64,000 nucleotides of DNA, from UHGV virus genome UHGV-1430915. One strand, written 5' to 3'. A model generated the notes under the pieces. It was given only the letters and a program-made list of their open reading frames with translations. It did no database searches and was not told the DNA's origin. The position numbers and the translations under genes were made by a program. This DNA is from a virus. Within the stretch, counting starts at the first letter, position 1. Every line of letters starts with the position of its first letter. Shown here in pieces: positions 25,902 to 55,011 of this stretch.

Positions 25902-26257
25902 TATTCTGCCTCCTCTTCTTTTTCTTCAGCATTAGTTTCAGTACCACCCCACTCTGGAGTTTCCACCTCGACAGTAAACTCACGCACTACACGGTAATTG
26001 CCCATGAAGCGCTCCACTTCTTCAAGGCTTATGGAGAGGCCATTGGCAACCAAGTCTGCAGCACCCTTCTCTACCAGGTAGTCCAGATTAGCTTCCAAGG
26101 CTTCAGGCTCAAACCCTGTCAATGCAATCATATAACCTTCCCCTTCATCAGGGAGGGCAATACAGCCCAACTGATTTTCTTTAAAAAAGCAGTGACCATC
26201 ACTATTGATTGGTTGCTCATTGCAGTAAATAGCTGCACGATAAGTAACTTTAGACAT
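25901..26257 (-). CDS. hypothetical acidic protein (118 aa)
   Basis: ORF track. Confidence 0.5.
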   Translation of the reverse strand: MSKVTYRAAIYCNEQPINSDGHCFFKENQLGCIALPDEGEGYMIALTGFEPEALEANLDYLVEKGAADLVANGLSISLEEVERFMGNYRVVREFTVEVETPEWGGTETNAEEKEEEAE

Positions 26258-26269
26258 TGATAGGCCTCC

Positions 26270-26548
26270 TTAGGCAACTGTCATTTTACATTCTTGAAAT
26301 TTTAGCACAAGACGGTGATTGTGTCTAGTGTCTAAAAAGATTTTTTCAACCATCAGGCACACGGTATAACCGTCTGTCTTGTTGACAACAAAATCCCCAG
26401 GGTGAGGGAGAATGTCCCCAGGATTGGGGAAACATAACCCGCTCAAGAAGGCATCATCGGTGGTGGACTTAATGGATTTCCACACACTATCTGCCTGAAC
26501 ATTCTCACCAACATAATATACACTACCACATGACTTCATCATAGTCAA
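26270..26548 (-). CDS. hypothetical protein (92 aa)
   Basis: ORF track. Confidence 0.45.
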   Translation of the reverse strand: MTMMKSCGSVYYVGENVQADSVWKSIKSTTDDAFLSGLCFPNPGDILPHPGDFVVNKTDGYTVCLMVEKIFLDTRHNHRLVLKFQECKMTVA

Positions 26549-27444
26549 ATCTCCGCGTAAATTAAACTGGAATCAGTATACTTCTTTAGTGGGTAAATAT
26601 CCTGTCCATAGATGCCGTCATTAAACACCTCATCTACCCAAAGGCTACACTTATATCCCATCATCTCTAAAACACCCATCTCTTCTTCGGTAAACTTATC
26701 ACCGCTCTTGCAAGATGTCAACACCTCATTCTGTACTCTTGCTACCTCGAAGCGATTATTGGCAATATCGCTATTGGCGATCAAATACTCACCTAAAGGG
26801 TGTGCGGCATTAAAGATGCACAGTGGGCGGTTGACGTAATAGTCTCCCGGTGTATAAAAATTGTTGAGATCCTTCACCAGAACATTCTTATCAGTCACTT
26901 CATTTATAACATCATGCATATCACACATCTTTATATGTTTGAGGATTCCATCCCCCATCACAAAATAAAAACTTGCTGAGACACTCTCGGCATAGATCTT
27001 ACTAGATCCGTTGTAGTTGTATTTTACGCGAATGCTTACAGGGGTTTTGCCTGTCGCGTTAGCCATCATCCAAAGGAACGGAAGTTCAAACTTCTCCTCT
27101 GAGGAAACAAAAGGTGAAGTTGCCAGAGATCGGAAACCACCAGAGAAGTTGAAAGTTACAGAGCCGCTCCGGCGATATGATACCGCATATTCTACTTTTA
27201 TATCGACATAGCCGTTGGAGTAAGTGTGGCCTCCATTATCCAGATATGTCCATTTATCAGATCCGGATACCAGCCTACGCTCAATAACCTTCATTACTAT
27301 AGGAATTAGCGGGTTGGTACAAACCGATTTTGAAGTAGCTTTATCATCCAAAGCCTCGTAAATTGCAGAAAGGATATCGCCTGCTGAGAGATTGGTTGTG
27401 ATATCTTGTTTCCACCTGGTGCTAAAACTGTTAAGATTTGCCAT
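26545..27444 (-). CDS. hypothetical protein (299 aa from MANLNSF...)
   Basis: ORF track frame; start moved to ATG at 27444 with SD AGGAG; first gene of the leftward block at the strand-switch point. Confidence 0.5.
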   Translation of the reverse strand: MANLNSFSTRWKQDITTNLSAGDILSAIYEALDDKATSKSVCTNPLIPIVMKVIERRLVSGSDKWTYLDNGGHTYSNGYVDIKVEYAVSYRRSGSVTFNFSGGFRSLATSPFVSSEEKFELPFLWMMANATGKTPVSIRVKYNYNGSSKIYAESVSASFYFVMGDGILKHIKMCDMHDVINEVTDKNVLVKDLNNFYTPGDYYVNRPLCIFNAAHPLGEYLIANSDIANNRFEVARVQNEVLTSCKSGDKFTEEEMGVLEMMGYKCSLWVDEVFNDGIYGQDIYPLKKYTDSSLIYAEI

Positions 27445-27526
27445 GATTAGGTGCTCCTGTGTTCGTTTTCTTTCGAATGGGTGCACTATATCGTGGATTT
27501 AGAGTAAAGTCAACACGTTTTTGAGG

Positions 27527-27555
27527 TTGACATCTTCCCAAGCACTTGATAAGAT
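27527..27555 (+). promoter_or_regulatory. sigma70-like promoter, rightward (TTGACA-17-TAAGAT) at the divergent strand switch
   Basis: TTGACA at 27527-27532, 17-nt spacer, TAAGAT at 27550-27555. Confidence 0.55.
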
Positions 27556-27586
27556 TTCTCCACCTACAGAGCACAAGAGACAACTC

Positions 27587-28576
27587 ATGAATCTTGAAAA
27601 ATATTATACACCAGAAGAGTTAGAGCGCCTGCTCAAAAAATATAGACGCAAACAGAATAATGCACGGAAACGAGATATAGAGTTCAACCTGTCATGGGAA
27701 GAATACCTCCTATTTGGTAAAAAACTTTTAGGAGATGGGGTATGCGACTATACCCTTATACCTTTCGACATGCACACAGATGAAAACGGACTGGGAAATC
27801 CTTTCTACCCATCTCTAGAGCGGATAGATGATGAAGGTCCTTATGCGGTTGATAACTGCTGTGTGGTGGGATTGAGATGCAACTCTCTAAAGGACTGTCT
27901 GGTAGATAAAAAGACCGCAGTCTTGATTAAAGACAAAACTGATCGAAAAATTGTCCAGCAGATGATGCTCCACCTGAGCGAAGAGCGCATGGAGAAATTG
28001 AAAGGTGATTACACTTTTGAAGATTTCATCTTGCAATATGGGACGGAAGAGGATAAACTGGCACTCTTTGACGAAGAATGGGAGGAAGATATGTCACCAA
28101 TGCAGGATTTTAAAAACTTCATGGCTAATCGTGGAGCCAACAAGCACATTTCTGACATCGTAAATGAGCCTATAACAGAAGAGATTGAAGAAATGATGCA
28201 ACAGGATCACGAAGAGGAAAAAGAGCCTCAAGGGGGCGAAGAAGAGCTTACAGAAGAGGTTCCTGCACTGCCTGACGATGTTGAGATTGCCAAAGCTTAC
28301 ACTTTCTATTGCCAGACGTTCTACGATGCGGGTATGAAAGTTGATTTGTCATTCAGCCAGTTTAAGAGCACATACATCCGAAAATGTTGTGCTTTAACTG
28401 GTGAGCGTCTCGGGGTCGGACTTAAACCACTATTAGTGACCGACTGGAATAAAGGTTTCACCAAGGGTAACTTTATGGTAGTATCTCCAATTATGGAGAA
28501 GGCTATGACAGACCTTATGAAGACAACTCGCATGACAATGACCGAGTTGGCTGGTATTTTCAAGCACGTTAAATAA
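27587..28576 (+). CDS. hypothetical protein with a degenerate His-Me/HNH-like cysteine-rich segment
   Basis: Start set at ATG 27587 (MNLEKYY...); segment GDGVCDYT...SLERIDDEGPYAVDNCCVVGLRCNSLKDC resembles an HNH/EndoVII zinc-finger spacing but lacks the catalytic His. Confidence 0.4.
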   Translation: MNLEKYYTPEELERLLKKYRRKQNNARKRDIEFNLSWEEYLLFGKKLLGDGVCDYTLIPFDMHTDENGLGNPFYPSLERIDDEGPYAVDNCCVVGLRCNSLKDCLVDKKTAVLIKDKTDRKIVQQMMLHLSEERMEKLKGDYTFEDFILQYGTEEDKLALFDEEWEEDMSPMQDFKNFMANRGANKHISDIVNEPITEEIEEMMQQDHEEEKEPQGGEEELTEEVPALPDDVEIAKAYTFYCQTFYDAGMKVDLSFSQFKSTYIRKCCALTGERLGVGLKPLLVTDWNKGFTKGNFMVVSPIMEKAMTDLMKTTRMTMTELAGIFKHVK

Positions 28577-28588
28577 TGACAGGGGCCA

Positions 28589-30070
28589 ATGGCCCCTTCT
28601 GGAGTTTTAATGGATAGCAGAAGTTCAGAAATCATTGCCGCACAAAAAGATGACGCCTTGCGAATGCTGCAGGCAGCACGCATGTATCTTCTTGAAAAGC
28701 TGCCGTTTTATGGCACACTGTTGTCAGGGTTGCAGTTCGTAGAAAACCACACATGGTGCTCCACTATGGCAACAGACCATAAACGCATCTACTACAGCCC
28801 TGAGTTCATTATGGGGTTGGCAGATGAGCGTAAAACCATTCTTAAAGCATCTCTGACTGACAAGCAGTTTGAGATGGCTGAGGTTTTCTATTCCCCAAAA
28901 TCTGTGAAAGAGGTGGCCTTTCTTCTGTCACATGAGGTGGGGCATATTATCTGTGATCATCTGGTCCGTGGTAAAAGCTTTGAGCCGGAACTGTTCAATA
29001 TTGCTTGTGATCACGTTATCAACACAGGTCTTGTGGTTGACTTTAGCAAGCCTCCTTGTGTTTTCTTCCCGAAGGGGAAAAGTACTGAGTTCGTAAAAGG
29101 TAAGCCTTTTGGCTTCTTAGCTAGTTGCTACTGTGACATGAGGTTCCATGGATGGATTGCTGAGAACGTTTATGCAGTTCTTGATAAGCAAAGAGATCAG
29201 AATAGCGGTAAAAGTAAGAACGGTAAAGGAGAGAACTCTCAAGGAGATAAACGACAAACCGATGATCACATGAGTGGGAACGGTGGAACTAGTGATGATC
29301 TTGGAAAGGCTATGGGGTATGATCAGCCACAGCCAGTGATCAGTCAATCTGATAAAGATCAAGCCATGCAGGACTCTGGTGACATGTTGGAAGCAGCAAT
29401 GCAAGCTTCCGGAGGTCGTTGCCCAGAGGCGGTGCGTGAGTTTGTCAAGAACAGAGGTAAGCCTGTAATCAATTATATAGACATCATTAAGCAACGTATG
29501 TTGTCCAAACGAAAGGCTGAACTAACCTACAGAAAACCTGGTCGCCGATCTGGGTCTTTGACCAGCACAATGCGAAAAGTTGGGGCTATAAAAAAGAATC
29601 AGCACGTTGTTGTTCCTGGTCGTAATCCGGAAAACACTATAGATATTGTGGTGGCTTTAGACGTTTCTGGGTCGATCTCACAAAGAACTTTAAAGAAAAT
29701 GTTCAATGAGATCACTGGGTTGTGCAATCTATATAAAGAGTTCAAGGTTACGATGTTCTGCTGGTCAACCGAGGTTGGAGAGGTTAAAGTATACACTCGT
29801 GGGAACATCGACGAGATGATCAACTATGAGGTCCACTCAACATGGGGCACAACAGCCGCTTGCGTGTTCAAGTATCTGGACGCTAACATACCAAATGCAA
29901 AAGATGTCATCGTCCTGACCGACCTATACTTTGAGCATAACTTTGAACAAAAGGCTGTTGACAACAAGTGGAAAAAGTACGATACTTTATGGGTTCTCAC
30001 CGAAGGGTATAATAAAAATTATATCCCAAGCTTTGGGAAAACTGTAGAATTGATCGAGTACGCTAAATAA
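28589..30070 (+). CDS. VWA-domain protein with N-terminal putative metallopeptidase (HExxH) domain; DUF2201/CobT-like, typical MoxR partner
   Basis: HEVGH zinc-binding motif; MIDAS motif VVALDVSGSIS. Confidence 0.65.
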   Translation: MAPSGVLMDSRSSEIIAAQKDDALRMLQAARMYLLEKLPFYGTLLSGLQFVENHTWCSTMATDHKRIYYSPEFIMGLADERKTILKASLTDKQFEMAEVFYSPKSVKEVAFLLSHEVGHIICDHLVRGKSFEPELFNIACDHVINTGLVVDFSKPPCVFFPKGKSTEFVKGKPFGFLASCYCDMRFHGWIAENVYAVLDKQRDQNSGKSKNGKGENSQGDKRQTDDHMSGNGGTSDDLGKAMGYDQPQPVISQSDKDQAMQDSGDMLEAAMQASGGRCPEAVREFVKNRGKPVINYIDIIKQRMLSKRKAELTYRKPGRRSGSLTSTMRKVGAIKKNQHVVVPGRNPENTIDIVVALDVSGSISQRTLKKMFNEITGLCNLYKEFKVTMFCWSTEVGEVKVYTRGNIDEMINYEVHSTWGTTAACVFKYLDANIPNAKDVIVLTDLYFEHNFEQKAVDNKWKKYDTLWVLTEGYNKNYIPSFGKTVELIEYAK

Positions 30071-30085
30071 GAGAGGATGTTATTT

Positions 30086-30346
30086 ATGGCAACAGAAGTA
30101 GTAATTAAAGCTGAACGCCCAGTTAAAAAAGCTATCAACACGTTTCCTGTAGGGACCATTGTGAGCATGATTACAGAGTCAGGTCGTGTATCTACACTGC
30201 TGATCGTGAAATCTGCATGCTCATCTTGTGTGTGGGCATATGATCTTGACGAGAAAGAACTGAAAGATTTTGTTGGAGAGCTGAAAGCAACAGAGCTTGA
30301 CGCTCGTATCGAAGTGTTTGGTGAAACTATGGAGGAAGAACAATGA
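30086..30346 (+). CDS. small protein, member 1 of a plus-strand tandem paralog trio
   Basis: Start at second ATG (30086, 9 nt after SD GAGAGGA); shares AE(R)P...F.(V/C)G(T/E)(I/V)V ... pattern with the next two genes. Confidence 0.45.
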   Translation: MATEVVIKAERPVKKAINTFPVGTIVSMITESGRVSTLLIVKSACSSCVWAYDLDEKELKDFVGELKATELDARIEVFGETMEEEQ

Positions 30347-30606
30347 CCACAAAAATAACCATTGCAGAACCGAAAGCTAACACGCAGCCTATCGAAAAGT
30401 TTAAATGCGGTGAGGTGGTAACATTCACACCTGACAATGAAGATGCTAAGATTTTCGCCATGGTCACAGCCGAGTGGATGTGTGACAACACCACACAGGT
30501 TCTGCGTTTTGACACCTATCTTACAGATGAAATCAGGAACGATAAGATCGTGACTGGTGTGGATACTGAGATTATTTTCTACAAGAGCTTTTTAGAAGGT
30601 TTCTGA
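30343..30606 (+). CDS. small protein, member 2 of the plus-strand paralog trio
   Basis: ORF track; ATGA overlap with the upstream gene. Confidence 0.45.
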   Translation: MTTKITIAEPKANTQPIEKFKCGEVVTFTPDNEDAKIFAMVTAEWMCDNTTQVLRFDTYLTDEIRNDKIVTGVDTEIIFYKSFLEGF

Positions 30607-30607
30607 T

Positions 30608-30841
30608 ATGGCGAAAATTCGTAAATTATCCAGCAATCAGGTTGTGAAAGACTTTGAATCTGGAGAGATTCTGTATGTTCGTGATGCAGATGACGAAGGT
30701 GAAGATCTTGTTATGCTAGTAGGACACGCTGAAGACGGATGCATCCAAGCCGTTTTTCTTGAAACAGCCATGGTGCACTGGATAGAGCTGGACCTGAAAG
30801 CACGAAAACCTAAAGCAGAAATCCTGATTTACGAAGATTAA
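30608..30841 (+). CDS. small protein, member 3 of the plus-strand paralog trio
   Basis: ORF track; FESGEILYVRDADDEGEDLVMLVG matches the family pattern. Confidence 0.45.
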   Translation: MAKIRKLSSNQVVKDFESGEILYVRDADDEGEDLVMLVGHAEDGCIQAVFLETAMVHWIELDLKARKPKAEILIYED

Positions 30842-30857
30842 CAAAAAGGAGAGAGCC

Positions 30858-31307
30858 GTGTTGAGCAAACGTGAATGCGACAGCATTAGCCTGAATTCTT
30901 ATAAGAAACAATGGTTTGGGGTGGAAGTTTGCCGACTGCGGCTAGGCTCCTACCTGAACTTCGTTTATTATGAGAGTGATAGTCGTATTGTTTCTTATGA
31001 AGTGTTCTACACCAAGAACACCTTCGAACTGCGCCGTAAAGTGGATGGTGGGAGAACTACCCCCCAGAATAATTGGGAAACTATCCTACCTACGGATGTT
31101 ATAGGAAGTCCCCTGAATGTATCTGAAGATGAAAATCTTATGGTTCATGCTATGATGGGACTTGACAGCTTAGAGCTGGCGATCTATGATATGTCCATCG
31201 AAGCAGTTAAGCTGGACTACATCGAAAACACTTTAGAGGAAGGTATCAAGAAGTTCCTCAGTGAGAAATTAAAAGACCACTTTCATAAGGAGCTATACCT
31301 GTTATGA
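30858..31307 (+). CDS. hypothetical protein (149 aa)
   Basis: ORF track. Confidence 0.5.
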   Translation: MLSKRECDSISLNSYKKQWFGVEVCRLRLGSYLNFVYYESDSRIVSYEVFYTKNTFELRRKVDGGRTTPQNNWETILPTDVIGSPLNVSEDENLMVHAMMGLDSLELAIYDMSIEAVKLDYIENTLEEGIKKFLSEKLKDHFHKELYLL

Positions 31308-31549
31308 AGACCCGTAAAGAACGTAACAAAATTTTACCTGGAGCTCTCGAACACCTGATGAAGTGCAGATCTATTTGGCACTCTGCCAAGGAAGGGCAGA
31401 AGGTGGTTGTGGTTAGTGACAATACCAACCCGTTTGGAGATTATACCACTATGATGGCTCCATATGTCCGTGATGGCGTTGTGGAAGTTGTCCCTTACAA
31501 TGGTCTGCATGAACGGCACTTTGAAAGCACTTTACTGGTGGAGCTATAG
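31304..31549 (+). CDS. hypothetical protein (81 aa)
   Basis: ORF track; ATGA overlap. Confidence 0.45.
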   Translation: MKTRKERNKILPGALEHLMKCRSIWHSAKEGQKVVVVSDNTNPFGDYTTMMAPYVRDGVVEVVPYNGLHERHFESTLLVEL

Positions 31550-31551
31550 TC

Positions 31552-32118
31552 ATGGCGGTCAATGTGGCTTACAACACAGGAAAGCTTGACAGAGACATTG
31601 GGTGTCTTGTCCTTTCAGATACAGAAGAGTATTGGGGTTATGGGTTGCTGTCAGACCCACACCCGAGCAACCTTGTATCAACAGTGCTATACCGCTACGA
31701 CCCTGTGCCAACGGTACACGACAAAGACATTCACGACCTTCGGATCAAGTGCCTAGAAGATCTGCTGGACAATGGTTGCAACGATCTGCGGGTAGCCAGG
31801 GAGAAGCTTACAAATATTCACAAAGAGGAAGTGATGAGCACTCTCAATAAGAGATCAGTGCACAAAAAGATGATGCTGAATTTTGCAATGGGTATCTACA
31901 TGGATGGGTATAAGGGAGGTGATCCGATTCTCAAGCTTCGCTGCCCAACACTGTGGGAAAGGGTGGTTGACAGCAAGGACGGTGCTGCCCTGCTTGAGCT
32001 ACACACTGCAGGTTGGATATGGCGGTATGTTGATGGATACCCTTTATGGGCATGTGGGCCTGGGGAATTTGTTGACAGGCCTAGTGCGGTGGTGGACTTG
32101 CTATTGCAGTTTGAATAA
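31552..32118 (+). CDS. hypothetical protein (188 aa)
   Basis: ORF track. Confidence 0.5.
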   Translation: MAVNVAYNTGKLDRDIGCLVLSDTEEYWGYGLLSDPHPSNLVSTVLYRYDPVPTVHDKDIHDLRIKCLEDLLDNGCNDLRVAREKLTNIHKEEVMSTLNKRSVHKKMMLNFAMGIYMDGYKGGDPILKLRCPTLWERVVDSKDGAALLELHTAGWIWRYVDGYPLWACGPGEFVDRPSAVVDLLLQFE

Positions 32119-32173
32119 AAGTGGGATATAAGGTGTTCATGCACCTACCAACAATACAACAAGAGAGACTGAA

Positions 32174-32449
32174 ATGACGAAAGAAGAAGCTGACGTATTA
32201 GATTTTGCACTGGAGGCTACGCAAGAGGCTCTGGTGTTAGCTTGGAAAATGAACCAGCGTGCTGCAGAATGCAACCGCCGAATCAATGAGATTCTAGGCA
32301 TGTCTATGTATGATTTCACTATGCATGCTGGAGAGATTCCTGAATTAACTGCAGAGATGAATGATCTTGACAATAAGATTAATATCATTCTGAAGACAGC
32401 AGAAACAACTCACCAAACCGCCCGTAAATTTATCAACGAGAAGGTGTGA
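32174..32449 (+). CDS. hypothetical protein (91 aa)
   Basis: ORF track. Confidence 0.45.
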   Translation: MTKEEADVLDFALEATQEALVLAWKMNQRAAECNRRINEILGMSMYDFTMHAGEIPELTAEMNDLDNKINIILKTAETTHQTARKFINEKV

Positions 32450-32916
32450 ATATGGACTACAGCTACTGCGGGGAAGAAGTTCCTTTTAATTACGGCAATC
32501 TTACCACGAGCAATCCATATGAGACTCGCCACGGCACGCACATCATTGCCATCGACTTTGATGGAACGTTTAATGCGAGCCCTTTCATCTTCTCCCGCCT
32601 GATCAGGGATCTGAAGAAGGAGGGGTGGACAGTCTACCTTGTGACTTTCCGATTCATTACTCAAGACAATGTAGACATTGAGTATTGGCGCAAGGAGCTC
32701 GATGTTGGTGTGTTCTACACAGGCGGTGTGCAGAAGGCAGCCTACTTGGCGCAGTTTGATATCTACCCAGATATCTGGATTGATGATTCTCCGGCATGTA
32801 TTCCGGCTAAGAATCAGTTAGAGTTTGCAATGAAGGAGATCGAGTATAAGTCTGCGGCTAAGCGGAACGGATGGCCCTTTATTATTGAAGATTACCCAGA
32901 TCCTGAACCGGAGTAA
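32446..32916 (+). CDS. HAD-superfamily phosphatase-like protein (possible 5'-nucleotidase/polynucleotide phosphatase)
   Basis: Motif I IAIDFDGTF (DxDGT), motif II LVTFR, Lys in GGVQKAAY, motif IV IWIDDSP. Confidence 0.45.
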   Translation: MNMDYSYCGEEVPFNYGNLTTSNPYETRHGTHIIAIDFDGTFNASPFIFSRLIRDLKKEGWTVYLVTFRFITQDNVDIEYWRKELDVGVFYTGGVQKAAYLAQFDIYPDIWIDDSPACIPAKNQLEFAMKEIEYKSAAKRNGWPFIIEDYPDPEPE

Positions 32917-32920
32917 GAGC

Positions 32921-33091
32921 CATGAGGCGAAGATATCATTACCTGATGTGGAAGTTATATCAAAATGCTGCCAAAGCCTATCATATCATGTTTGGCAATG
33001 ACGATCACTACATCATGTTACATCTCACCGCTATTGAGCATCACAATGAGTGGATTCATGCAATCGTGGCAGGTGATAAAGACTTTAAGTA
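32921..33091 (+). CDS. candidate small ORF (56 aa, MRRRYHYLMWKLYQNAAKAYHIMF...)
   Basis: Fills the gap between neighbouring plus-strand genes, GGAG upstream; below the ORF-track cutoff. Confidence 0.25.
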
Positions 33092-33142
33092 AAATATACC
33101 TCAAAAACGTATAGTGCGGCTTTCTAGATGGAGACTGATTAA

Positions 33143-33523
33143 ATGTGCAAGTGTAAATCCTACAATTGGAAAGTGAAAGGTGCCAAGCACCAAAATGTTA
33201 TCGTTGATGTGCCTAAAAAGCTCCGTGACGGCAAAAAACGTGTGTGCCTTGATAAGTGCATGGCTAAGCCTGTCATGAGTCTATGGGCGGCGGGATTGAA
33301 AACTCTAAACTGCTGCTGTGGTCATAACAAAGATGTTCCAAGTATCATTATCCCAGAAGATGCAGACCCTAAAGCTTATGCCAAAATACTGACCCGCTAC
33401 CCCAGCACCTTCCTGATCGGAAAATGGTGTCACGATGAACTTCAATGGTGGGTAGCATACGGTAGTATAGGTACTGCTTTTGGCTTCCCAGCTTTGTCAG
33501 AGCGCTATGTCAAAGTGTCATAA
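33143..33523 (+). CDS. hypothetical cysteine-rich protein (126 aa)
   Basis: ORF track; clusters CKCK, CLDKC, CCCGH suggest metal binding. Confidence 0.45.
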   Translation: MCKCKSYNWKVKGAKHQNVIVDVPKKLRDGKKRVCLDKCMAKPVMSLWAAGLKTLNCCCGHNKDVPSIIIPEDADPKAYAKILTRYPSTFLIGKWCHDELQWWVAYGSIGTAFGFPALSERYVKVS

Positions 33524-33627
33524 TAGAATTTAAGGCCTCAAACGAGGCCTGTGCCTTCATAAATTTCCCCACCCTGTGCGATTGCCTTCCTGAATAAAAT
33601 ACCCTCTCAGATCTCTTAAAATTAAGC

Positions 33628-33656
33628 TTGACACCAACACCAGATCTATATATAAT
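33628..33656 (+). promoter_or_regulatory. perfect-consensus sigma70 promoter, rightward (TTGACA-17-TATAAT)
   Basis: TTGACA at 33628-33633, 17-nt spacer, TATAAT at 33651-33656, after a hairpin AGGCCTCAAACGAGGCCT at 33533-33550. Confidence 0.65.
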
Positions 33657-33684
33657 TCTCACCAACCAAACAGAGGAGATCGTC

Positions 33685-34092
33685 ATGGATAATCTTGCAG
33701 ATGTAAATGTCGAAATTGTTAAACTAAAGTTCTTGGGCTTTCGAGACCCTTATTCTTTAACAGCCATACTAATGGATACTCACTTCACACCAGGTAAAGA
33801 GTACACTGCCTTCCGTTATATTTGCGGAGATCACGAATCGGCTTATAGTGTGAATACAAACCTCGGCGAGGGATATTTCATCAGAGATATCACAGATCAC
33901 TTGTGGGGTATGTGGGAGTTGGTGGGGGAAGAGAATAAATCCCTTCCTAAAGAGATTTGGGTGCACACCTTCCACACAGGCAAGTTTGGAGGTACGGAAC
34001 ATAAGTCTATCCACTATGATGAAGAAAGTGCCATCAAGCAACAAGCTGTGCTTGGTGGATCTGTAGAAAAATTTGTTAAATGCGAGGACTGA
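33685..34092 (+). CDS. hypothetical protein (135 aa from MDNLADVNVE...)
   Basis: Start moved to ATG at 33685 (SD GAGGAG) downstream of the 33628-33656 promoter; the track ORF start at 33628 would overlap the promoter. Confidence 0.5.
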   Translation: MDNLADVNVEIVKLKFLGFRDPYSLTAILMDTHFTPGKEYTAFRYICGDHESAYSVNTNLGEGYFIRDITDHLWGMWELVGEENKSLPKEIWVHTFHTGKFGGTEHKSIHYDEESAIKQQAVLGGSVEKFVKCED

Positions 34093-41786: not shown

Positions 41787-42053
41787 TTAAGCTTTTTGCT
41801 CTTCGTTTTTAACGTGGTCAGGGTGCTGGCAACCCCACCGGAGCGAGATGAATTTGCTAATAAGCTGGGGGCAAGCTACCGAAGGTGCGTATATCCACGC
41901 ATACCATTCAGGAAGCGTATCATTATACCCCATATGAATAAACACCCCAGTCATCACTGCCATGCCTATGTTTGACCATAGCTTAGATTGGGACACTTTC
42001 GTAGGGTCATCAGATGCCGCAACCAACCCCCATAAAAACTGAGTTAATTTCAT
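41787..42053 (-). CDS. small hydrophobic protein (88 aa)
   Basis: Hydrophobic segments (FLWGLVAA, IGMAVMTGVFI); sits between fibre genes. Confidence 0.4.
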   Translation of the reverse strand: MKLTQFLWGLVAASDDPTKVSQSKLWSNIGMAVMTGVFIHMGYNDTLPEWYAWIYAPSVACPQLISKFISLRWGCQHPDHVKNEEQKA

Positions 42054-42062
42054 TTACCCTCT

Positions 42063-43109
42063 TTAAGCATAAGATATCGTGATCCATTGACCGTTTACAA
42101 ATTTTTGAATAGCACCAGTCCAATAGTCACCTTGATACGGGTGTTTATAGGCGTAATTGCCGGAGCACATTACATGCCCAGGGTATACTCTTGATTCTCT
42201 GTAGGTGGTTCTGAAACGGTTTGCTATCCTTACATCTTCAACACCCATACTAGGCATAGGGATAGTAAGGTTACCACTGCTATCTGCGCTACTACCATTT
42301 ACCCTGCGGACCACGTTTCTCCCACCAACTGTTGCATATTGACCTCTGGCGGTTTTATCGTTACAATCTACTCTTCCACCTATTTGAGCGCTGCCGCAGG
42401 ATTGTTGTCCATTAACAGTGGCTCTTGGTATCGTTACCGCATTGGCATTTGCAGAGGAGCTTTTTGCATCATTGCATTCAAGATTTCCTTGGATAGCCAG
42501 TCTTGCACGGTTGGCAGTTATAGCATTGAGCTTCATAGCCGAAAACACAGGCTGCCCACCAGAAGGTTGAAATCTCCAACGGAAACCGTCTATTTGGTGA
42601 GAAGGATCATCAAGGTCTGTGCCGTCAGCGCCACCGATGTTGTCCATAATCCAGAAATCCATCATCGTCTTGTCTGGAGTTATGGTGGTATATATCGCCG
42701 CATTGTCTGTTGACGCAGATGCAAACTCAATTCTTTGAAGACCTAAAGTTTGAGTCTGGATCATTGTGTCTCCAGTCTTGTCAACATAAAGGTCATCCAT
42801 TTCTTCAGGCGAGTATACATTGAGAACTTTACGTGCAGCAGCTTTGTCTGGAACGTCTGCCAGATTATTAGTGACCCTTAAGAATCTATTATCCCATCCA
42901 GGGACAACATCTTCTGTTAAATGCTTTAGCCACGCAGAGAGCATATGGAGTTCAAAGTTAACAACTTCACATGCTATCCTTTGTGTCATATCCCAACCTT
43001 TCAATCTCTCTTCTTTGTTCGGTTGAGATTTGTTCAACTCTCCTGTATTTTCAAGCACAACATCCTGATTGGCCCAAATATCAAGAGGGATAACTGGTTT
43101 AGTCATCAC
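42063..43109 (-). CDS. tail fibre protein, paralog 1 (GDTM motif)
   Basis: KTGDTMIQTQTLGLQRIEF fibre motif; N-terminus PLDIWA and C-terminus VNGQWITISYA shared with 44122..45162. Confidence 0.55.
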   Translation of the reverse strand: MMTKPVIPLDIWANQDVVLENTGELNKSQPNKEERLKGWDMTQRIACEVVNFELHMLSAWLKHLTEDVVPGWDNRFLRVTNNLADVPDKAAARKVLNVYSPEEMDDLYVDKTGDTMIQTQTLGLQRIEFASASTDNAAIYTTITPDKTMMDFWIMDNIGGADGTDLDDPSHQIDGFRWRFQPSGGQPVFSAMKLNAITANRARLAIQGNLECNDAKSSSANANAVTIPRATVNGQQSCGSAQIGGRVDCNDKTARGQYATVGGRNVVRRVNGSSADSSGNLTIPMPSMGVEDVRIANRFRTTYRESRVYPGHVMCSGNYAYKHPYQGDYWTGAIQKFVNGQWITISYA

Positions 43110-43196
43110 GTTCTCCTGAGAAAATTCCTTAAGGACTATTTTAACACTTTAGAGAACAAAATGCAAGAACGGCATCCTTGCCGTTCTGACCTTTGT

Positions 43197-43511
43197 TTAC
43201 CTTTTACTATGCTCTACAAGCATGTGTAAAATCTTTTGCACATCAGCTCTGATACCGGAGACATCTGTCCTGACATCTTGCTTAAGGTCGTTAATATCGG
43301 CCTCTAGCTTACTTAACCGGGTCTCGATAATGGAATCAAGTCTATCTTTTGTAACCATGCTATTTTTCACTAAAATGAGGTCTTTCTCCAGCTCATCTAA
43401 CCTCTTGGAAATGCCTTTCCATTTGGTGTGCCACTGGTTGAAAGCCCATACACAGATCGGGACAACGGTACCCATGCAGATACCGTACAATGCCGCCAAA
43501 TCCAACTCCAC
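43197..43511 (-). CDS. small membrane-anchored coiled-coil protein (104 aa)
   Basis: N-terminal TM-like segment LYGICMGTVVPICVWAF followed by heptad-like LDELEKDL...LSKLEADINDLKQDV. Confidence 0.4.
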   Translation of the reverse strand: MELDLAALYGICMGTVVPICVWAFNQWHTKWKGISKRLDELEKDLILVKNSMVTKDRLDSIIETRLSKLEADINDLKQDVRTDVSGIRADVQKILHMLVEHSKR

Positions 43512-43522
43512 AACACCTCCTC

Positions 43523-44107
43523 TTAGAGGGTAGGTCGTTCCGGGAAGAAAATGTCAGGGGCTTTAGATGTATCTATTTCAAGAAGTTTTACCCTGTACAT
43601 TTTCAAATCTCTGATGTTGCGTTTCTGGTCATCAGTAAGATCATATTCAAGGTCAATCATGTCTTGATAGGCACCAATTCTAGCAGTAGCCCAAGCAAGT
43701 TCTGTCTCTATGACACCCTCTGCCTGTTGAACAAAGAACTCATTGTCTGCGACAAATTCATCACCAACTAAACGCAAAGCGTCGTGGTGGAGCATAATGT
43801 TTTCTGGTACCTCTTCTTTTTTGGCGATAACCACACGAAGACCTGGAGCAGGCCACAAGGCATCAGGCTCTTCTGTAGATGTCTTAAGAATACCCTTCTC
43901 GTCAACAAGTAGGAAGATACAGCCAGGATTTTCTTGTCGCAATGTTCGTGATTGGACATACCAATCGCCATCATCGTTACGTAAAAAATATCCAGTGTAT
44001 GCCGTGTAATCCTCCACCTCTTGAGGGGTAAGCTCCTTGGTCTCGTTGTTAGTGAAGTATTCGCCAGATCCCGGCTGGTAAAGTTTAAACTCTTGAAGTA
44101 TTTTCAT
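43523..44107 (-). CDS. hypothetical protein (194 aa)
   Basis: ORF track. Confidence 0.5.
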   Translation of the reverse strand: MKILQEFKLYQPGSGEYFTNNETKELTPQEVEDYTAYTGYFLRNDDGDWYVQSRTLRQENPGCIFLLVDEKGILKTSTEEPDALWPAPGLRVVIAKKEEVPENIMLHHDALRLVGDEFVADNEFFVQQAEGVIETELAWATARIGAYQDMIDLEYDLTDDQKRNIRDLKMYRVKLLEIDTSKAPDIFFPERPTL

Positions 44108-44121
44108 GCTAGTCCTCCGAT

Positions 44122-45162
44122 CTACGCATAATTAACAGTGATCCATTGACCATTTACAAGTTTTTGTAAAGGTCCTGCCCAGTAGGTTGAACCACGCATC
44201 TCTTTTTTATCACCAAAATGCCAACCTGTGACAACGTAGCCGTTGCGAACTGGAGATTCAGAAACACCATCAACAAGTCTTGCACCGATTCTGATATCCT
44301 GTACCCCTGTCTGCGGGATGGTGATCGTTACATCGCCGTTACCGTTAGCTGTCACTCCATTCACAGAGCGCACCACATTTCTGTTACCGACAACACAATG
44401 CTGGCTTCTTACAACCATACTGTCACAACTTGCGCCGCCATTAACATAAACGGACCCAGCTGTCAACTGACTAGCCACATTACAGTTGGTGAATGTTGCT
44501 GTGCTGCTAATGGTAAGGTTGTTACACCGCATGTTATCGACAACTTCAACATTACCTACCACTTTCAACAGCGCACGGTTAGCCGTGATCGCGTTCAGGT
44601 ACATCAAAGTGAACTCTGGATTAATGTCTGGCTGAGTTGGCTGGAATCTCCAACGAAACGCATCTACTGTAGATGTGCCACCATCATCAAACGCCCCAGT
44701 GTTATCACTTAACCCAAAGTCGAGAGTTGTCTTATCTGGACCAATAGTTGTCTCTATCCAAGCCTTATCTGTCTCGGCAGCTTTAAAGTTGATACGCTGC
44801 AAACCTAAGGGGCCTGTCATTGTATCGCCTGTAACTTTTACATACCTGGCGTCTGCCTCTTCCTTAGTAATAATCCCAAGGTTTCTACGGGCAACAGGAA
44901 TGTTCAAAAGATCACTTAGGTTATTATCACGTACCAGATAACGGCCTTCTTGGGCTGGGATCTGCTCGTCAGCAATATATTTTGCCCAAGTCCCGAGCAT
45001 ATTGAAAATATAGTTAAGTTCTTCACATGACGGCTTTTGACCAAGATCCCAACCTTTTCTCCACAAATCATCAATCGGGCGTAGCCTGTTCTGTCTGTGG
45101 GTGTTAGGCAGAACCTGATCCTCCTCTGCCCAAATCTCTAATGGAAAACTAGGTTTTGACAT
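44122..45162 (-). CDS. tail fibre protein, paralog 2 (GDTMTGPL motif)
   Basis: VKVTGDTMTGPLGLQRINF; conserved N- and C-termini with 42063..43109, divergent middle. Confidence 0.55.
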   Translation of the reverse strand: MSKPSFPLEIWAEEDQVLPNTHRQNRLRPIDDLWRKGWDLGQKPSCEELNYIFNMLGTWAKYIADEQIPAQEGRYLVRDNNLSDLLNIPVARRNLGIITKEEADARYVKVTGDTMTGPLGLQRINFKAAETDKAWIETTIGPDKTTLDFGLSDNTGAFDDGGTSTVDAFRWRFQPTQPDINPEFTLMYLNAITANRALLKVVGNVEVVDNMRCNNLTISSTATFTNCNVASQLTAGSVYVNGGASCDSMVVRSQHCVVGNRNVVRSVNGVTANGNGDVTITIPQTGVQDIRIGARLVDGVSESPVRNGYVVTGWHFGDKKEMRGSTYWAGPLQKLVNGQWITVNYA

Positions 45163-49435: not shown

Positions 49436-49506
49436 GTCACTCCTCCGGTATGAAAATCTCTACAAGGTATTTTACCAAATTTTGTAACAATAGTCAATCT
49501 GAGCAT

Positions 49507-54948: not shown

Positions 54949-55011
54949 TGTGCCTCCAGGTTAAACAATCATGATAGTTATTTTACCAGATTTTGAGTTA
55001 ATACGCAATAC

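Follow-up and report, generated by a model that had tools for sequence, protein, structure and literature searches.

The window is the whole stretch of viral DNA analysed here, 64,000 nucleotides in length. Its nearest relative by megablast is phage S127 BCL3 (99.5% identity; 119 related records). Judged by this similarity, the source phage is a Vequintavirus, an rV5/FV3-like phage of E. coli. The locus carries two minus-strand ORFs for short tail fibres, A and B, with a 194-aa ORF and a 104-aa ORF between them. In the BASEL annotation, these genes appear as two short tail fibers and a tail fiber chaperone.

Fibre A (44122..45162, minus strand) has 346 aa and equals rV5 gp33. It follows immediately on the baseplate and NCTSP genes, the NCTSP gene being intercalated after the wedge genes, and the gene for the chaperone Tfa comes next. 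Fibre B (42063..43106, minus strand) equals rV5 gp30. It follows the gene for the 104-aa protein, TMcc, and has no adjoining wedge or Tfa gene. Translation of fibre B probably begins with the ATG at 43106, six bases downstream of an AGGAG. This start gives 347 aa, as in the deposited records. The GTG at 43109 (348 aa) is a less likely start.

After fibre B comes m88 (41787..42053, minus strand; rV5 gp29), a conserved small protein of 88 aa. It matches phrog_1322 (2.7e-32), evolves with a dN/dS of 0-0.06 and has orthologues in Av-05, PVP-SE1, BIS47 and phiTE. It is only weakly hydrophobic (maximum KD19 hydropathy 1.05), although annotated as a membrane protein. The m88 gene forms the downstream border of a variable slot, which holds fibre B in the window.

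Chaperone, membrane protein and transcription signals

The 194-aa ORF (43523..44107, minus strand; rV5 gp32) encodes Tfa, a tail fibre assembly chaperone. Its residues 120-192 match PF02413 Caudo_TAP with 46.1 bits (cutoff 22.1; E=6.7e-12), and the full length matches phrog_136 (7.2e-36). The preliminary description had left this protein as a possible fibre chaperone or lysis-related product. The first of these is now supported and the second refuted. The dN/dS of Tfa is 0.05-0.08. The locus contains a single copy, adjoining fibre A, and fibre B lacks a dedicated chaperone gene. In BIS47, Tfa was exchanged along with the fibre tip. We infer that the single Tfa would fold both fibre trimers from their tips.

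TMcc (43197..43511, minus strand; rV5 gp31) had been described as a membrane protein with a coiled coil, and both elements are found. The transmembrane segment spans aa 5-23 (KD 1.91). The heptad coiled coil has 74 residues, with hydrophobic residues at 15 of 22 a/d positions. The topology prediction, proposed earlier as a check, gives N-out/C-in, with an acidic N-terminal tip and four K/R after the transmembrane segment. TMcc matches phrog_5345 (1.1e-48), has homologues in 224 phage records and shows a dN/dS of 0.03-0.04. In every locus inspected, its gene comes immediately after that for Tfa. It is part of the late fibre operon, bounded by a predicted late promoter and a terminator.

Searches gave little about the function of TMcc. 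Curated families returned no match, and a word-indexed protein search with the single sequence found near-identical proteins only. A profile search found 175 homologues. Among the 120 matches listed, lengths are 85-123 aa, most lie on contigs typical of this phage group, and none offers a functional lead. For m88, TMcc and a 4-TM protein from related loci, Pfam, NCBIfam and PHROGs returned coiled-coil noise or families of unknown function, and nothing else. An XhlA-like haemolysin was rejected for TMcc, the match (16 bits over 20 residues) being taken as chance.

Homology with the Mu gp25 releasin was also rejected as unproven, with DUF2730 reaching E=0.12, in a full-length alignment, in one homologue only. 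Against PF10805, the window protein has no match, and the best score among its homologues is 13 bits (E=0.12), below the cutoff of 24.9. DUF2730 is not among the 25 families most matched by 80 TMcc members, and the hhalign probabilities are 0.4% and 5%. The two proteins are nevertheless alike in form. Mu gp25 also has about 100 aa, four residues outside, an N-terminal transmembrane segment and N-out/C-in topology. Both have a basic juxtamembrane stretch, a helical cytoplasmic domain of ~73-80 aa and late expression. Unlike Mu gp25, TMcc is encoded in a fibre operon and not near the endolysin gene, which in rV5 lies at 71.6 kb, about 49 kb from gp31. Judged against the releasin criterion (PMC9239132), the rV5 endolysin has no hydrophobic SAR-type N-terminal segment, and by our own reading of its sequence it resembles lambda R. 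The likeliest reading of TMcc is a late protein tethered to the inner membrane and absent from the virion. A role as releasin-like or holin-associated factor in V5-like phages is conceivable, though less likely than the two-anchor explanation of the fibres given below. To our knowledge, the holin of V5-like phages has never been identified.

An intrinsic-terminator-like hairpin with a T-rich tail (43156..43187, minus strand) lies between TMcc and fibre B. Its stem of 9 pairs is followed by TGCATTTTGT. The consensus fold of five sequences from three lineages has 7 pairs, 4 of them with compensatory double changes, and the tail TTGCATTTTG is invariant. This predicted terminator would close a transcription unit running from the baseplate genes through fibre A, the single Tfa and TMcc.

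A late-promoter-like element (43123..43160, minus strand) precedes fibre B, with its core TGTTAAAATA at 43146-43137. It equals the late promoter P030, predicted by MEME in rV5 (Kropinski 2013), except for one extra T: TCCTTAAGG here and TCCTAAGG in rV5. The window has three copies of the motif TGKTAAAATA, all on the minus strand, where 0.39 would be expected. The core TG[TC]TAAAATA is kept in two related loci, L006 and L017. Fibre B is thus predicted to have its own terminator and late promoter, opening a separate late transcription unit.

Conservation and history of the two fibres

Fibres A and B align end to end (BLASTP, 43% identity, E=4e-95), and both match phrog_4465 over its full length (positions 1-342 of 342; 4.5e-171 for A and 1.4e-162 for B). 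By this alignment, they are true paralogues. The preliminary description had proposed two related fibre genes whose shared termini align significantly, and the full-length E value is far beyond chance. The motifs that it named are also present. PLEIWA/PLDIWA is found at residues 7-12 of fibre A and 8-13 of fibre B, and the fibres end in VNGQWITVNYA and VNGQWITISYA. The collar near residue 112 reads GDTMTG in fibre A and GDTM-IQ in fibre B, where it is altered by a 2-aa insertion.

The proposed pattern of conserved ends and a divergent middle is not what the alignment gives. Identity in a 30-aa sliding window runs from 27% to 63%, and the middle (aa 105-210) is the best conserved part, with 50-63%. 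The lowest values are at aa 46-90, 211-270 (with indels) and 300-335. At the ends, the conserved islands comprise only the first ~14 and the last ~12 residues. A shared, conserved N-terminal anchor with a variable centre is likewise contradicted: the first 110 residues rank with the most diverged parts (38% identity), and each paralogue is closer there to single-copy orthologues than to the other paralogue. The C-terminal tips of A and B are 45% identical in the window phage, and each shows deep conservation within its paralogue. Gene conversion was rejected as an origin of the shared ends because synonymous sites are saturated throughout. This includes the last 21 codons of A versus B and also the tips of the L017 lineage, which are 84% identical as proteins.

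Homology shows three parts in the fibres. The N-terminal ~100 residues are a baseplate-docking joint as in the solved short tail fibre of phiTE, followed by a shaft bearing the GDTMTG collar, and the C-terminal ~60 residues make up a tip of the Mu gpS type. Residues 1-108 of fibre A match the phiTE fibre (9CUY, 1.5e-19), in which the docking domain is residues 3-92 of the solved protein. Residues 2-83 of fibre B match it with 2.3e-8 to 3.3e-8. The family profile matches 9CUY at both termini (N-terminus 1.9e-26, C-terminus 5.9e-6). With phmmer, fibre A matches Mu gpS 5YVQ (whole chain 1.4e-6; tip stretch 286-343, 0.0051), and fibre B alone gives no match. The family profile matches 5YVQ in the tip (2.3e-8) and in the collar region (0.0027), and it also matches Mu S' 8JU3. 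Fibre B keeps all the invariant family residues, including those of the N-terminus; in the tip these are G286, V287, R291, G308, V310, Q333, G338 and W340. The AF2 monomer of fibre A, from a 26-sequence alignment, is poor (pLDDT 59.8, pTM 0.31), too poor for structural conclusions. We used only its Foldseek match, and the sole significant one in the PDB is 5YVQ_A, at about E=6e-8 (6.2e-8). A literature search for an rV5-like baseplate structure found none.

Both fibres are under strong purifying selection. Fibre A is 98-100% identical across about 116 Vequintavirus records, with a dN/dS of 0.005-0.015. Fibre B is 92-99% identical across the genus, with a dN/dS of 0.05-0.09 and a non-synonymous rate about 5 times that of fibre A. 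Its most conserved part is the tip. The short tail fibres show no allelic variation. About 117 phage records carry an uninterrupted fibre B ORF, as do three lineages separated by saturated synonymous divergence.

The search for related loci among viral contigs gave 4 loci only. Two further, diverged lineages retain the two-fibre layout. In Av-05, PVP-SE1 and BIS47, the single fibre lies where fibre A does, and identity to single-copy fibres is 46-48% for fibre A and 38-39% for fibre B. Four single-fibre genera share the order STF-Tfa-TMcc-4TM-m88-LTF, with the 4-TM gene in the slot of fibre B. In another lineage this slot is empty, and tblastn finds no remnant of the 4-TM gene in the window. 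By position and identity, fibre A is the ancestral orthologue and the slowly evolving copy. On the same comparisons, fibre B is a lineage-specific second copy in a variable slot, evolving faster. It would be an old extra copy, placed after TMcc. The regional trees conflict: A and B form a clade in 183 of 200 bootstraps over the whole length and in 0 of 100 in the N-terminus. Fibre B may have arisen through duplication, through mosaic recombination or through import.

Anchors, tips and the reason for two fibres

The two products of the locus are probably paralogous short tail fibres of an rV5-like myovirus that point downward, with different anchors, a shared Tfa and tips for the LPS core. Each fibre would be a homotrimer. 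A and B would dock through different N-terminal anchor types, so the virion would display both at once. The tips would bind the LPS core, which is the terminal receptor of phage LL12, mapped genetically; LL12 requires WaaC, WaaF and WaaG, and WaaP partly. The two fixed and different tips of the window phage would probably recognise two core epitopes. These would make irreversible adsorption more robust, not switch host range.

In the solved relatives phi92 and phiTE, each wedge has one short-fibre site. Fibre III of phi92 (gp147) is Mu-fibre-like and wedge-docked, with six copies per baseplate. A second short-fibre docking site, suggested by sequence divergence, may be present in the window phage. 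The text of the rV5 paper has gp30, gp32 and gp33 detected in virions. Its mass spectrometry Table S5 (19 proteins) contains no peptide of these three, and the gene table carries no flag for them, so the presence of both fibres in virions is undocumented. None of the experiments in the literature examined ties either fibre to a particular receptor or baseplate site or shows that it is essential.

The preliminary description had taken the fibres for alternative receptor-binding proteins. This holds in part. The tips differ, each being fixed, which fits two fixed receptor specificities. The low dN/dS of both fibres (0.005-0.09) and the L017 lineage speak against it. The N-termini of A and B are 38% identical in all three lineages and the tips are 45%, 45% and 84% identical, the last in L017. 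So alternative tips cannot be the whole reason for two copies: with near-identical tips and anchors at 38%, the lasting difference lies in the anchor and not in the receptor tip.

Accounting for this, a tentative explanation is that the two paralogues are kept for two different baseplate anchors and not for two tips. They would be separate sets at distinct docking positions, or one of them would be mounted on a lateral fibre. The receptor tip would then be a freely exchangeable module, the same on both sets in L017 or different in the rV5 lineage. We know of no solved myovirus of the subfamily with such a two-set arrangement.

It seems unlikely that A and B are interchangeable on the same baseplate anchor and differ only in the receptor-binding region, giving two host ranges through mixed virions or competition for six sites. 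The divergent tips, each conserved within its paralogue, would suit this, as would the first ~14 residues shared by A and B and the six short-fibre sites of the solved relatives. Two LPS chemotypes had also been suggested (Kropinski 2013). However, the docking domains are only 38% identical, each copy being nearer the single-copy orthologues. L017 keeps two same-tip paralogues under long-term selection, and there is neither allelic variation nor diversifying selection.

It is very unlikely that fibre B is not a baseplate fibre, being instead a branch or adaptor on the 581-aa fibre of the phiTE gp241 type or on the 1878-aa Ig-like protein. Other phages do have branched fibres, and here fibre B would be co-transcribed with m88 and these two genes from its own late promoter. 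Its faster evolution, diverged N-terminus and altered collar with the 2-aa insertion are consistent with a branch. Nevertheless, this N-terminus still matches the wedge-docking domain of phiTE and keeps the invariant family residues, and no branching site is known in the subfamily. Finally, a redundant or decaying duplicate without separate function, which the fivefold non-synonymous rate, the missing chaperone gene and the absence of fibre B from most genera of the subfamily might suggest, is close to refuted by its dN/dS, its intact ORF in about 117 records and three lineages, its highly conserved tip, and the promoter-like element and compensated hairpin conserved before it.

The rV5-like phages rank among the coliphages of broad host range that are isolated most often, and cocktails for therapy and biocontrol make use of them. 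Because irreversible adsorption is triggered by the short tail fibres, the choice between two epitopes and two structural positions is of practical interest. If two LPS-core epitopes are recognised, resistance by core truncation would be harder; the alternative is two structural positions.

Comparison with known fibre systems

The genes of the window are the same as rV5 gp33/gp30 with gp32, and as the short tail fiber pair with chaperone of the BASEL Vequintavirus phages. Identity to deposited records is 98.8-100% for fibre A and 95-99% for fibre B. The paralogy (42.3%), the chaperone, the homology with Mu S/U and a proposed LPS-core role have been published (Kropinski 2013; Maffei 2021, S5D Fig). 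Since genes, paralogy and chaperone are already described, the locus adds no new biology. The published accounts do not cover the two alternative states of the slot in sister lineages (a 4-TM gene, or no gene), the hairpin ahead of the promoter, the conflict between evolutionary signals in different parts of the gene, or the identical-tip lineage. The comparative details added here are a variable slot, a separate late promoter, anchors that remain different where tips may be the same, and a conserved membrane-tethered TMcc.

T4 gp12 is an analogue by role, binding the LPS core for irreversible adsorption, and not a family member. It uses gp57A and not a Caudo_TAP chaperone. HMMER searches of the PDB with fibre A, fibre B and the family profile, up to E=1 and 0.01, returned no gp12 chain. 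The rV5 paper reported HHpred matches to 1PDI (Kropinski 2013).

In phiTE gp236 (9CUY) and phi92 gp147, the N-terminal docking domain is homologous to that of the window fibres. Their short fibre gene follows the wedge genes and precedes those for Tfa and TMcc, as does fibre A. These fibres point downward, six per baseplate. Both phages have a single short fibre, compared with two here. In phiTE, a flagellotropic phage, the fibre includes a long coiled coil, and its distal domains are Ig-like. Similarity between the phi92 fibre and fibre A is confined to the two ends (38% coverage).

Mu gpS/gpU (5YVQ, 9KI1) resembles the window in the tip domain and collar region, which are homologous to those of the fibres here, and in the Caudo_TAP chaperone gene directly downstream, as after fibre A. 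The Mu fibre binds the LPS core, and the window fibres would do likewise. Mu alternates S/U and S'/U' by inversion of the G segment, whereas both genes here are complete, on the same strand and fixed. A Mu-type invertible switch was rejected, as the locus has no invertase ORF and no flanking inverted repeats; the longest arms around the fibres are 14-19 nt, scattered, with 78-86% complementarity. The window locus further differs in having one chaperone for two fibres, and its N-terminal docking domain is of the phiTE type and not of the Mu type.

Gene order at the short tail fibre locus

Across 7.3 kb, the locus shares 99.5% identity with Escherichia phage S127 BCL3. Phage records matched at 80-99% identity number 119, almost all of them from the genus Vequintavirus (rV5/FV3-like coliphages). 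The genes of interest all lie on the minus strand. In transcription order, they begin with a baseplate J-like protein (49435-47945, 496 aa; rV5 gp36), a baseplate protein (47933-47247, 228 aa; gp35) and an NCTSP/Calx-beta protein (47247-45175, 690 aa; gp34). Next are the first short tail fibre, fibre A (45162-44122, 346 aa; gp33), the chaperone Tfa (44107-43523, 194 aa; gp32) and TMcc, an ORF with a transmembrane (TM) segment and a coiled coil (43511-43197, 104 aa; gp31). The second short fibre, fibre B, follows (43106-42063, 347 aa; gp30), then the small ORF m88 (42053-41787, 88 aa; gp29), a further fibre (41777-40032, 581 aa; gp28) and an Ig-like protein (39983-34347, 1878 aa; gp27). The annotation of the BASEL phage WalterGehring gives these genes two 'short tail fiber protein' labels and one 'tail fiber chaperone', besides hypothetical proteins.

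The two-fibre feature is already known. Kropinski et al. (PMC3606486) assigned gp32 to assembly and listed gp31 as a membrane protein with one TM. Maffei et al. found no notable allelic variation in the short tail fibres, of which phi92-like and Phapecoctavirus phages have one copy. According to the rV5 text (PMC3606486), virion proteomics detected gp30, gp32 and gp33. These three are absent from the 19 proteins of the deposited MS table, and no 'MS evidence' flag stands against them in the rV5 gene table (Additional files 3 and 5 of PMC3606486). For the related phage W70, proteomics gave hundreds of spectra for the short and long fibres and did not find the four intervening ORFs. From the gene numbering and the analogy with phiTE gp237-240, we take these to be Tfa and three membrane proteins.

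The neighbouring genes offer further observations. The 690-aa protein carries Calx-beta, NCTSP_N and NCTSP TIM-barrel domains, as in N4 gp65, and is the counterpart of the fibre tied in the literature to the NGR/ECA primary receptor (phi92 gp142). Orthologues of the 581-aa fibre bear Pfam Phage_phiTE_241_N and _C, so this fibre corresponds to gp241, the long tail fibre of phiTE. Its BASEL label is lateral fibre, with a glycosidase domain. The m88 product is annotated 'membrane protein' (phrog_1322), yet its best 19-residue Kyte-Doolittle mean is 1.05, weakly hydrophobic, and this label may be wrong. The gene is strongly conserved (dN/dS 0-0.06). GC skew changes sign at about 26000-34000 of the window, positive at 28-34 kb and negative elsewhere; the change marks a block whose transcription runs the opposite way. 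Among the MG0656xx records, 16-21 are named 'Campylobacter phage', most with Campylobacter jejuni as host, and share about 95% identity with V5-like phages of E. coli at the locus. Their assigned host looks doubtful.

Divergence of the two fibres

Fibres A and B align end to end with 43% identity (E=4e-95). The preliminary description had noted duplicated fibres with conserved ends and divergent middles. The pair is real and every motif named is found in the fibres, but the pattern was mis-described and its interpretation is right in part. By 30-residue sliding identity, the peak lies in the middle (50-63% at aa 105-210), and the minima are at aa 46-90, 211-270 (with indels) and 300-335. At the ends, conserved islands are limited to ~14 N-terminal and ~12 C-terminal residues. 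Synonymous sites are saturated over the entire gene (pS about 0.83), including the last 21 codons, so the shared ends reflect constraint at the protein level. The same saturation rules out recent gene conversion as their source.

Both proteins match phrog_4465 'tail fiber protein' over their full length (1e-162 and 1e-171). In a search of solved structures, the N-terminal ~100 residues of both matched the phiTE short tail fibre 9CUY, where this part is modelled as the joint docking on the baseplate wedge. The C-terminal ~60 residues of fibre A matched the Mu gpS tip (5YVQ). A family profile built from 20 members made both matches stronger, giving 1.9e-26 (N-terminus) and 5.9e-6 (C-terminus) against 9CUY. 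Against Mu gpS it gave 2.3e-8 (tip) and 0.0027 (collar region), and Mu S' was matched too. For fibre A, the AF2 monomer model was of poor quality (pLDDT 59.8); its sole significant Foldseek PDB match was 5YVQ_A (E=6e-8). Homology shows both fibres to be of the Mu S type, with docking domains of the phiTE type.

The copies evolve at different rates. Fibre A is 46-48% identical to the single-copy fibres versus 38-39% for fibre B, and 98-100% versus 92-99% conserved within the genus. Its dN/dS is 0.005-0.015, against 0.05-0.09 for fibre B. The conservative copy is fibre A.

Two diverged metagenomic lineages share the layout of the window. One (L006-8) is 88% identical to it in A, 77% in B, 78% in Tfa and 85% in TMcc; the other (L017) is 74% identical in A, 45% in Tfa and 52% in TMcc. 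The two-fibre arrangement is old. In all three lineages, A and B are 38% identical over the N-terminal 110 residues. Their tips are 45% identical in the window and 45% and 84% in the other lineages, the last value from L017 (an ENA metagenome contig; paralogues at L017:116-1156 and L017:2190-3254). Synonymous divergence of the L017 tips is saturated (pS 0.8-1.0) and pN is 0 in the last 20 codons, so selection, not recent conversion, keeps them alike. The tip is also the most conserved region within each paralogue. What differs constantly between A and B is the anchor, not the tip.

Trees differ by region. A and B are sisters over the full length in 183 of 200 bootstraps, versus 0 of 100 in the N-terminal 110 residues, where each copy is nearer to the single-copy orthologues than to the other paralogue. 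At aa 111-210 they are mutually nearest relatives. These conflicting signals suggest that fibre B is either an old paralogue with a later shaft exchange, or a mosaic.

The fibre B slot and its transcription signals

Single-fibre genera (Av-05, PVP-SE1, BIS47 and phiTE; n=4) have the order short fibre, Tfa, TMcc, 4-TM protein, m88 and long fibre. In Phapecoctavirus, the place of TMcc after the short fibre and Tfa is taken by a 111-aa protein distantly related to TMcc. The slot between TMcc and m88 comprises 43110-43196 plus fibre B in the window. Its equivalents in related loci are L003:6949-7422, L004:6312-6785, L005:6847-7320 (Klebsiella phage BIS47), L014:8563-9021, L020 and L021. Its content varies by lineage: a 157-aa 4-TM protein (phrog_7451, Pfam Phage_phiTE_239), fibre B together with a terminator and promoter of its own, or no gene at all. 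One metagenomic lineage has it empty and another has the 4-TM gene, of which no trace is left in the window.

The 88-nt gap 3' of TMcc contains a hairpin with a T-rich tail. Compared across three lineages, four of its seven pairs carry compensatory double changes. The next element is TGTTAAAATA, which equals the rV5 late promoter P030 except for one extra T. The window has three copies of the late-promoter-like motif TGKTAAAATA versus 0.39 expected, all on the minus strand (43137-43146, 49468-49477 and 54979-54988). The first precedes fibre B and the second the baseplate J-like gene (start 49435). Judged from these sequence signals, fibre B would open its own transcription unit, placing the fibres in two late units.

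Chaperone, membrane protein and proposed mechanism

The 194-aa gene had been proposed as a fibre chaperone or lysis-related. The chaperone reading stood, through matches to PF02413 (6.7e-12, C-terminal 70 residues) and phrog_136 (7e-36). In this class, a variable N-domain binds the fibre tip and conserved C-terminal helices trimerise. There is one Caudo_TAP chaperone gene, and it adjoins fibre A. Tfa, TMcc and m88 are under strong purifying selection. In BIS47 (L005:5001-6526), unrelated sequences have replaced both Tfa and the fibre tip, the latter from about aa 280 onwards, and TMcc is kept (~33% identical to that of the window). This looks like a clean swap of a tip-plus-chaperone module, and TMcc therefore does not track tip type.

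The architecture described for TMcc was borne out: one strong TM segment (aa 5-23) precedes an unbroken 74-residue heptad repeat. The N-terminus is an acidic four-residue stretch and four K/R immediately follow the TM, a charge layout that predicts N-out/C-in topology. TMcc lies directly 3' of Tfa in every Vequintavirinae and Phapecoctavirus locus inspected (homologues in related loci: L003:6638-6952, L004:6001-6315, L014:8228-8566 and L013:6598-6933). Homology with Mu gp25 was not demonstrable (hhalign probability 0.4-5%; DUF2730 E=0.12, in one homologue only). The architecture is the same as in this releasin (99 aa, N-out/C-in, 73-aa cytoplasmic domain, late expression). The holin of V5-like phages is still to be identified according to the literature. 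The rV5 endolysin, encoded ~49 kb from TMcc, is without a hydrophobic N-terminus and, in our own reading of its sequence, resembles lambda R. We regard TMcc as a late, membrane-tethered, non-virion protein; a role in lysis and one in fibre or baseplate assembly are about equally likely guesses.

We propose that the single Tfa would fold both fibre trimers. Each paralogue would make its own homotrimer and use a different anchor for docking, so that both are displayed together. The LPS core may be what their tips bind, with two epitopes recognised in the rV5 lineage and a single shared one in L017. Genetic work on LL12 maps the terminal receptor to the LPS core: the phage needs WaaC and WaaF, plates at 1e-6 on WaaG mutants and depends partly on WaaP. 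The parts themselves are identified with near certainty. The proposal is weakest at the two-site and two-epitope steps, and we regard the whole package (fibre identities, shared Tfa, separate anchors and LPS-core tips) as somewhat probable. The short tail fibres studied here are homologous to phi92 fibre III (gp147), which occupies the wedge in a six-fold arrangement and is similar to the Mu fibre.
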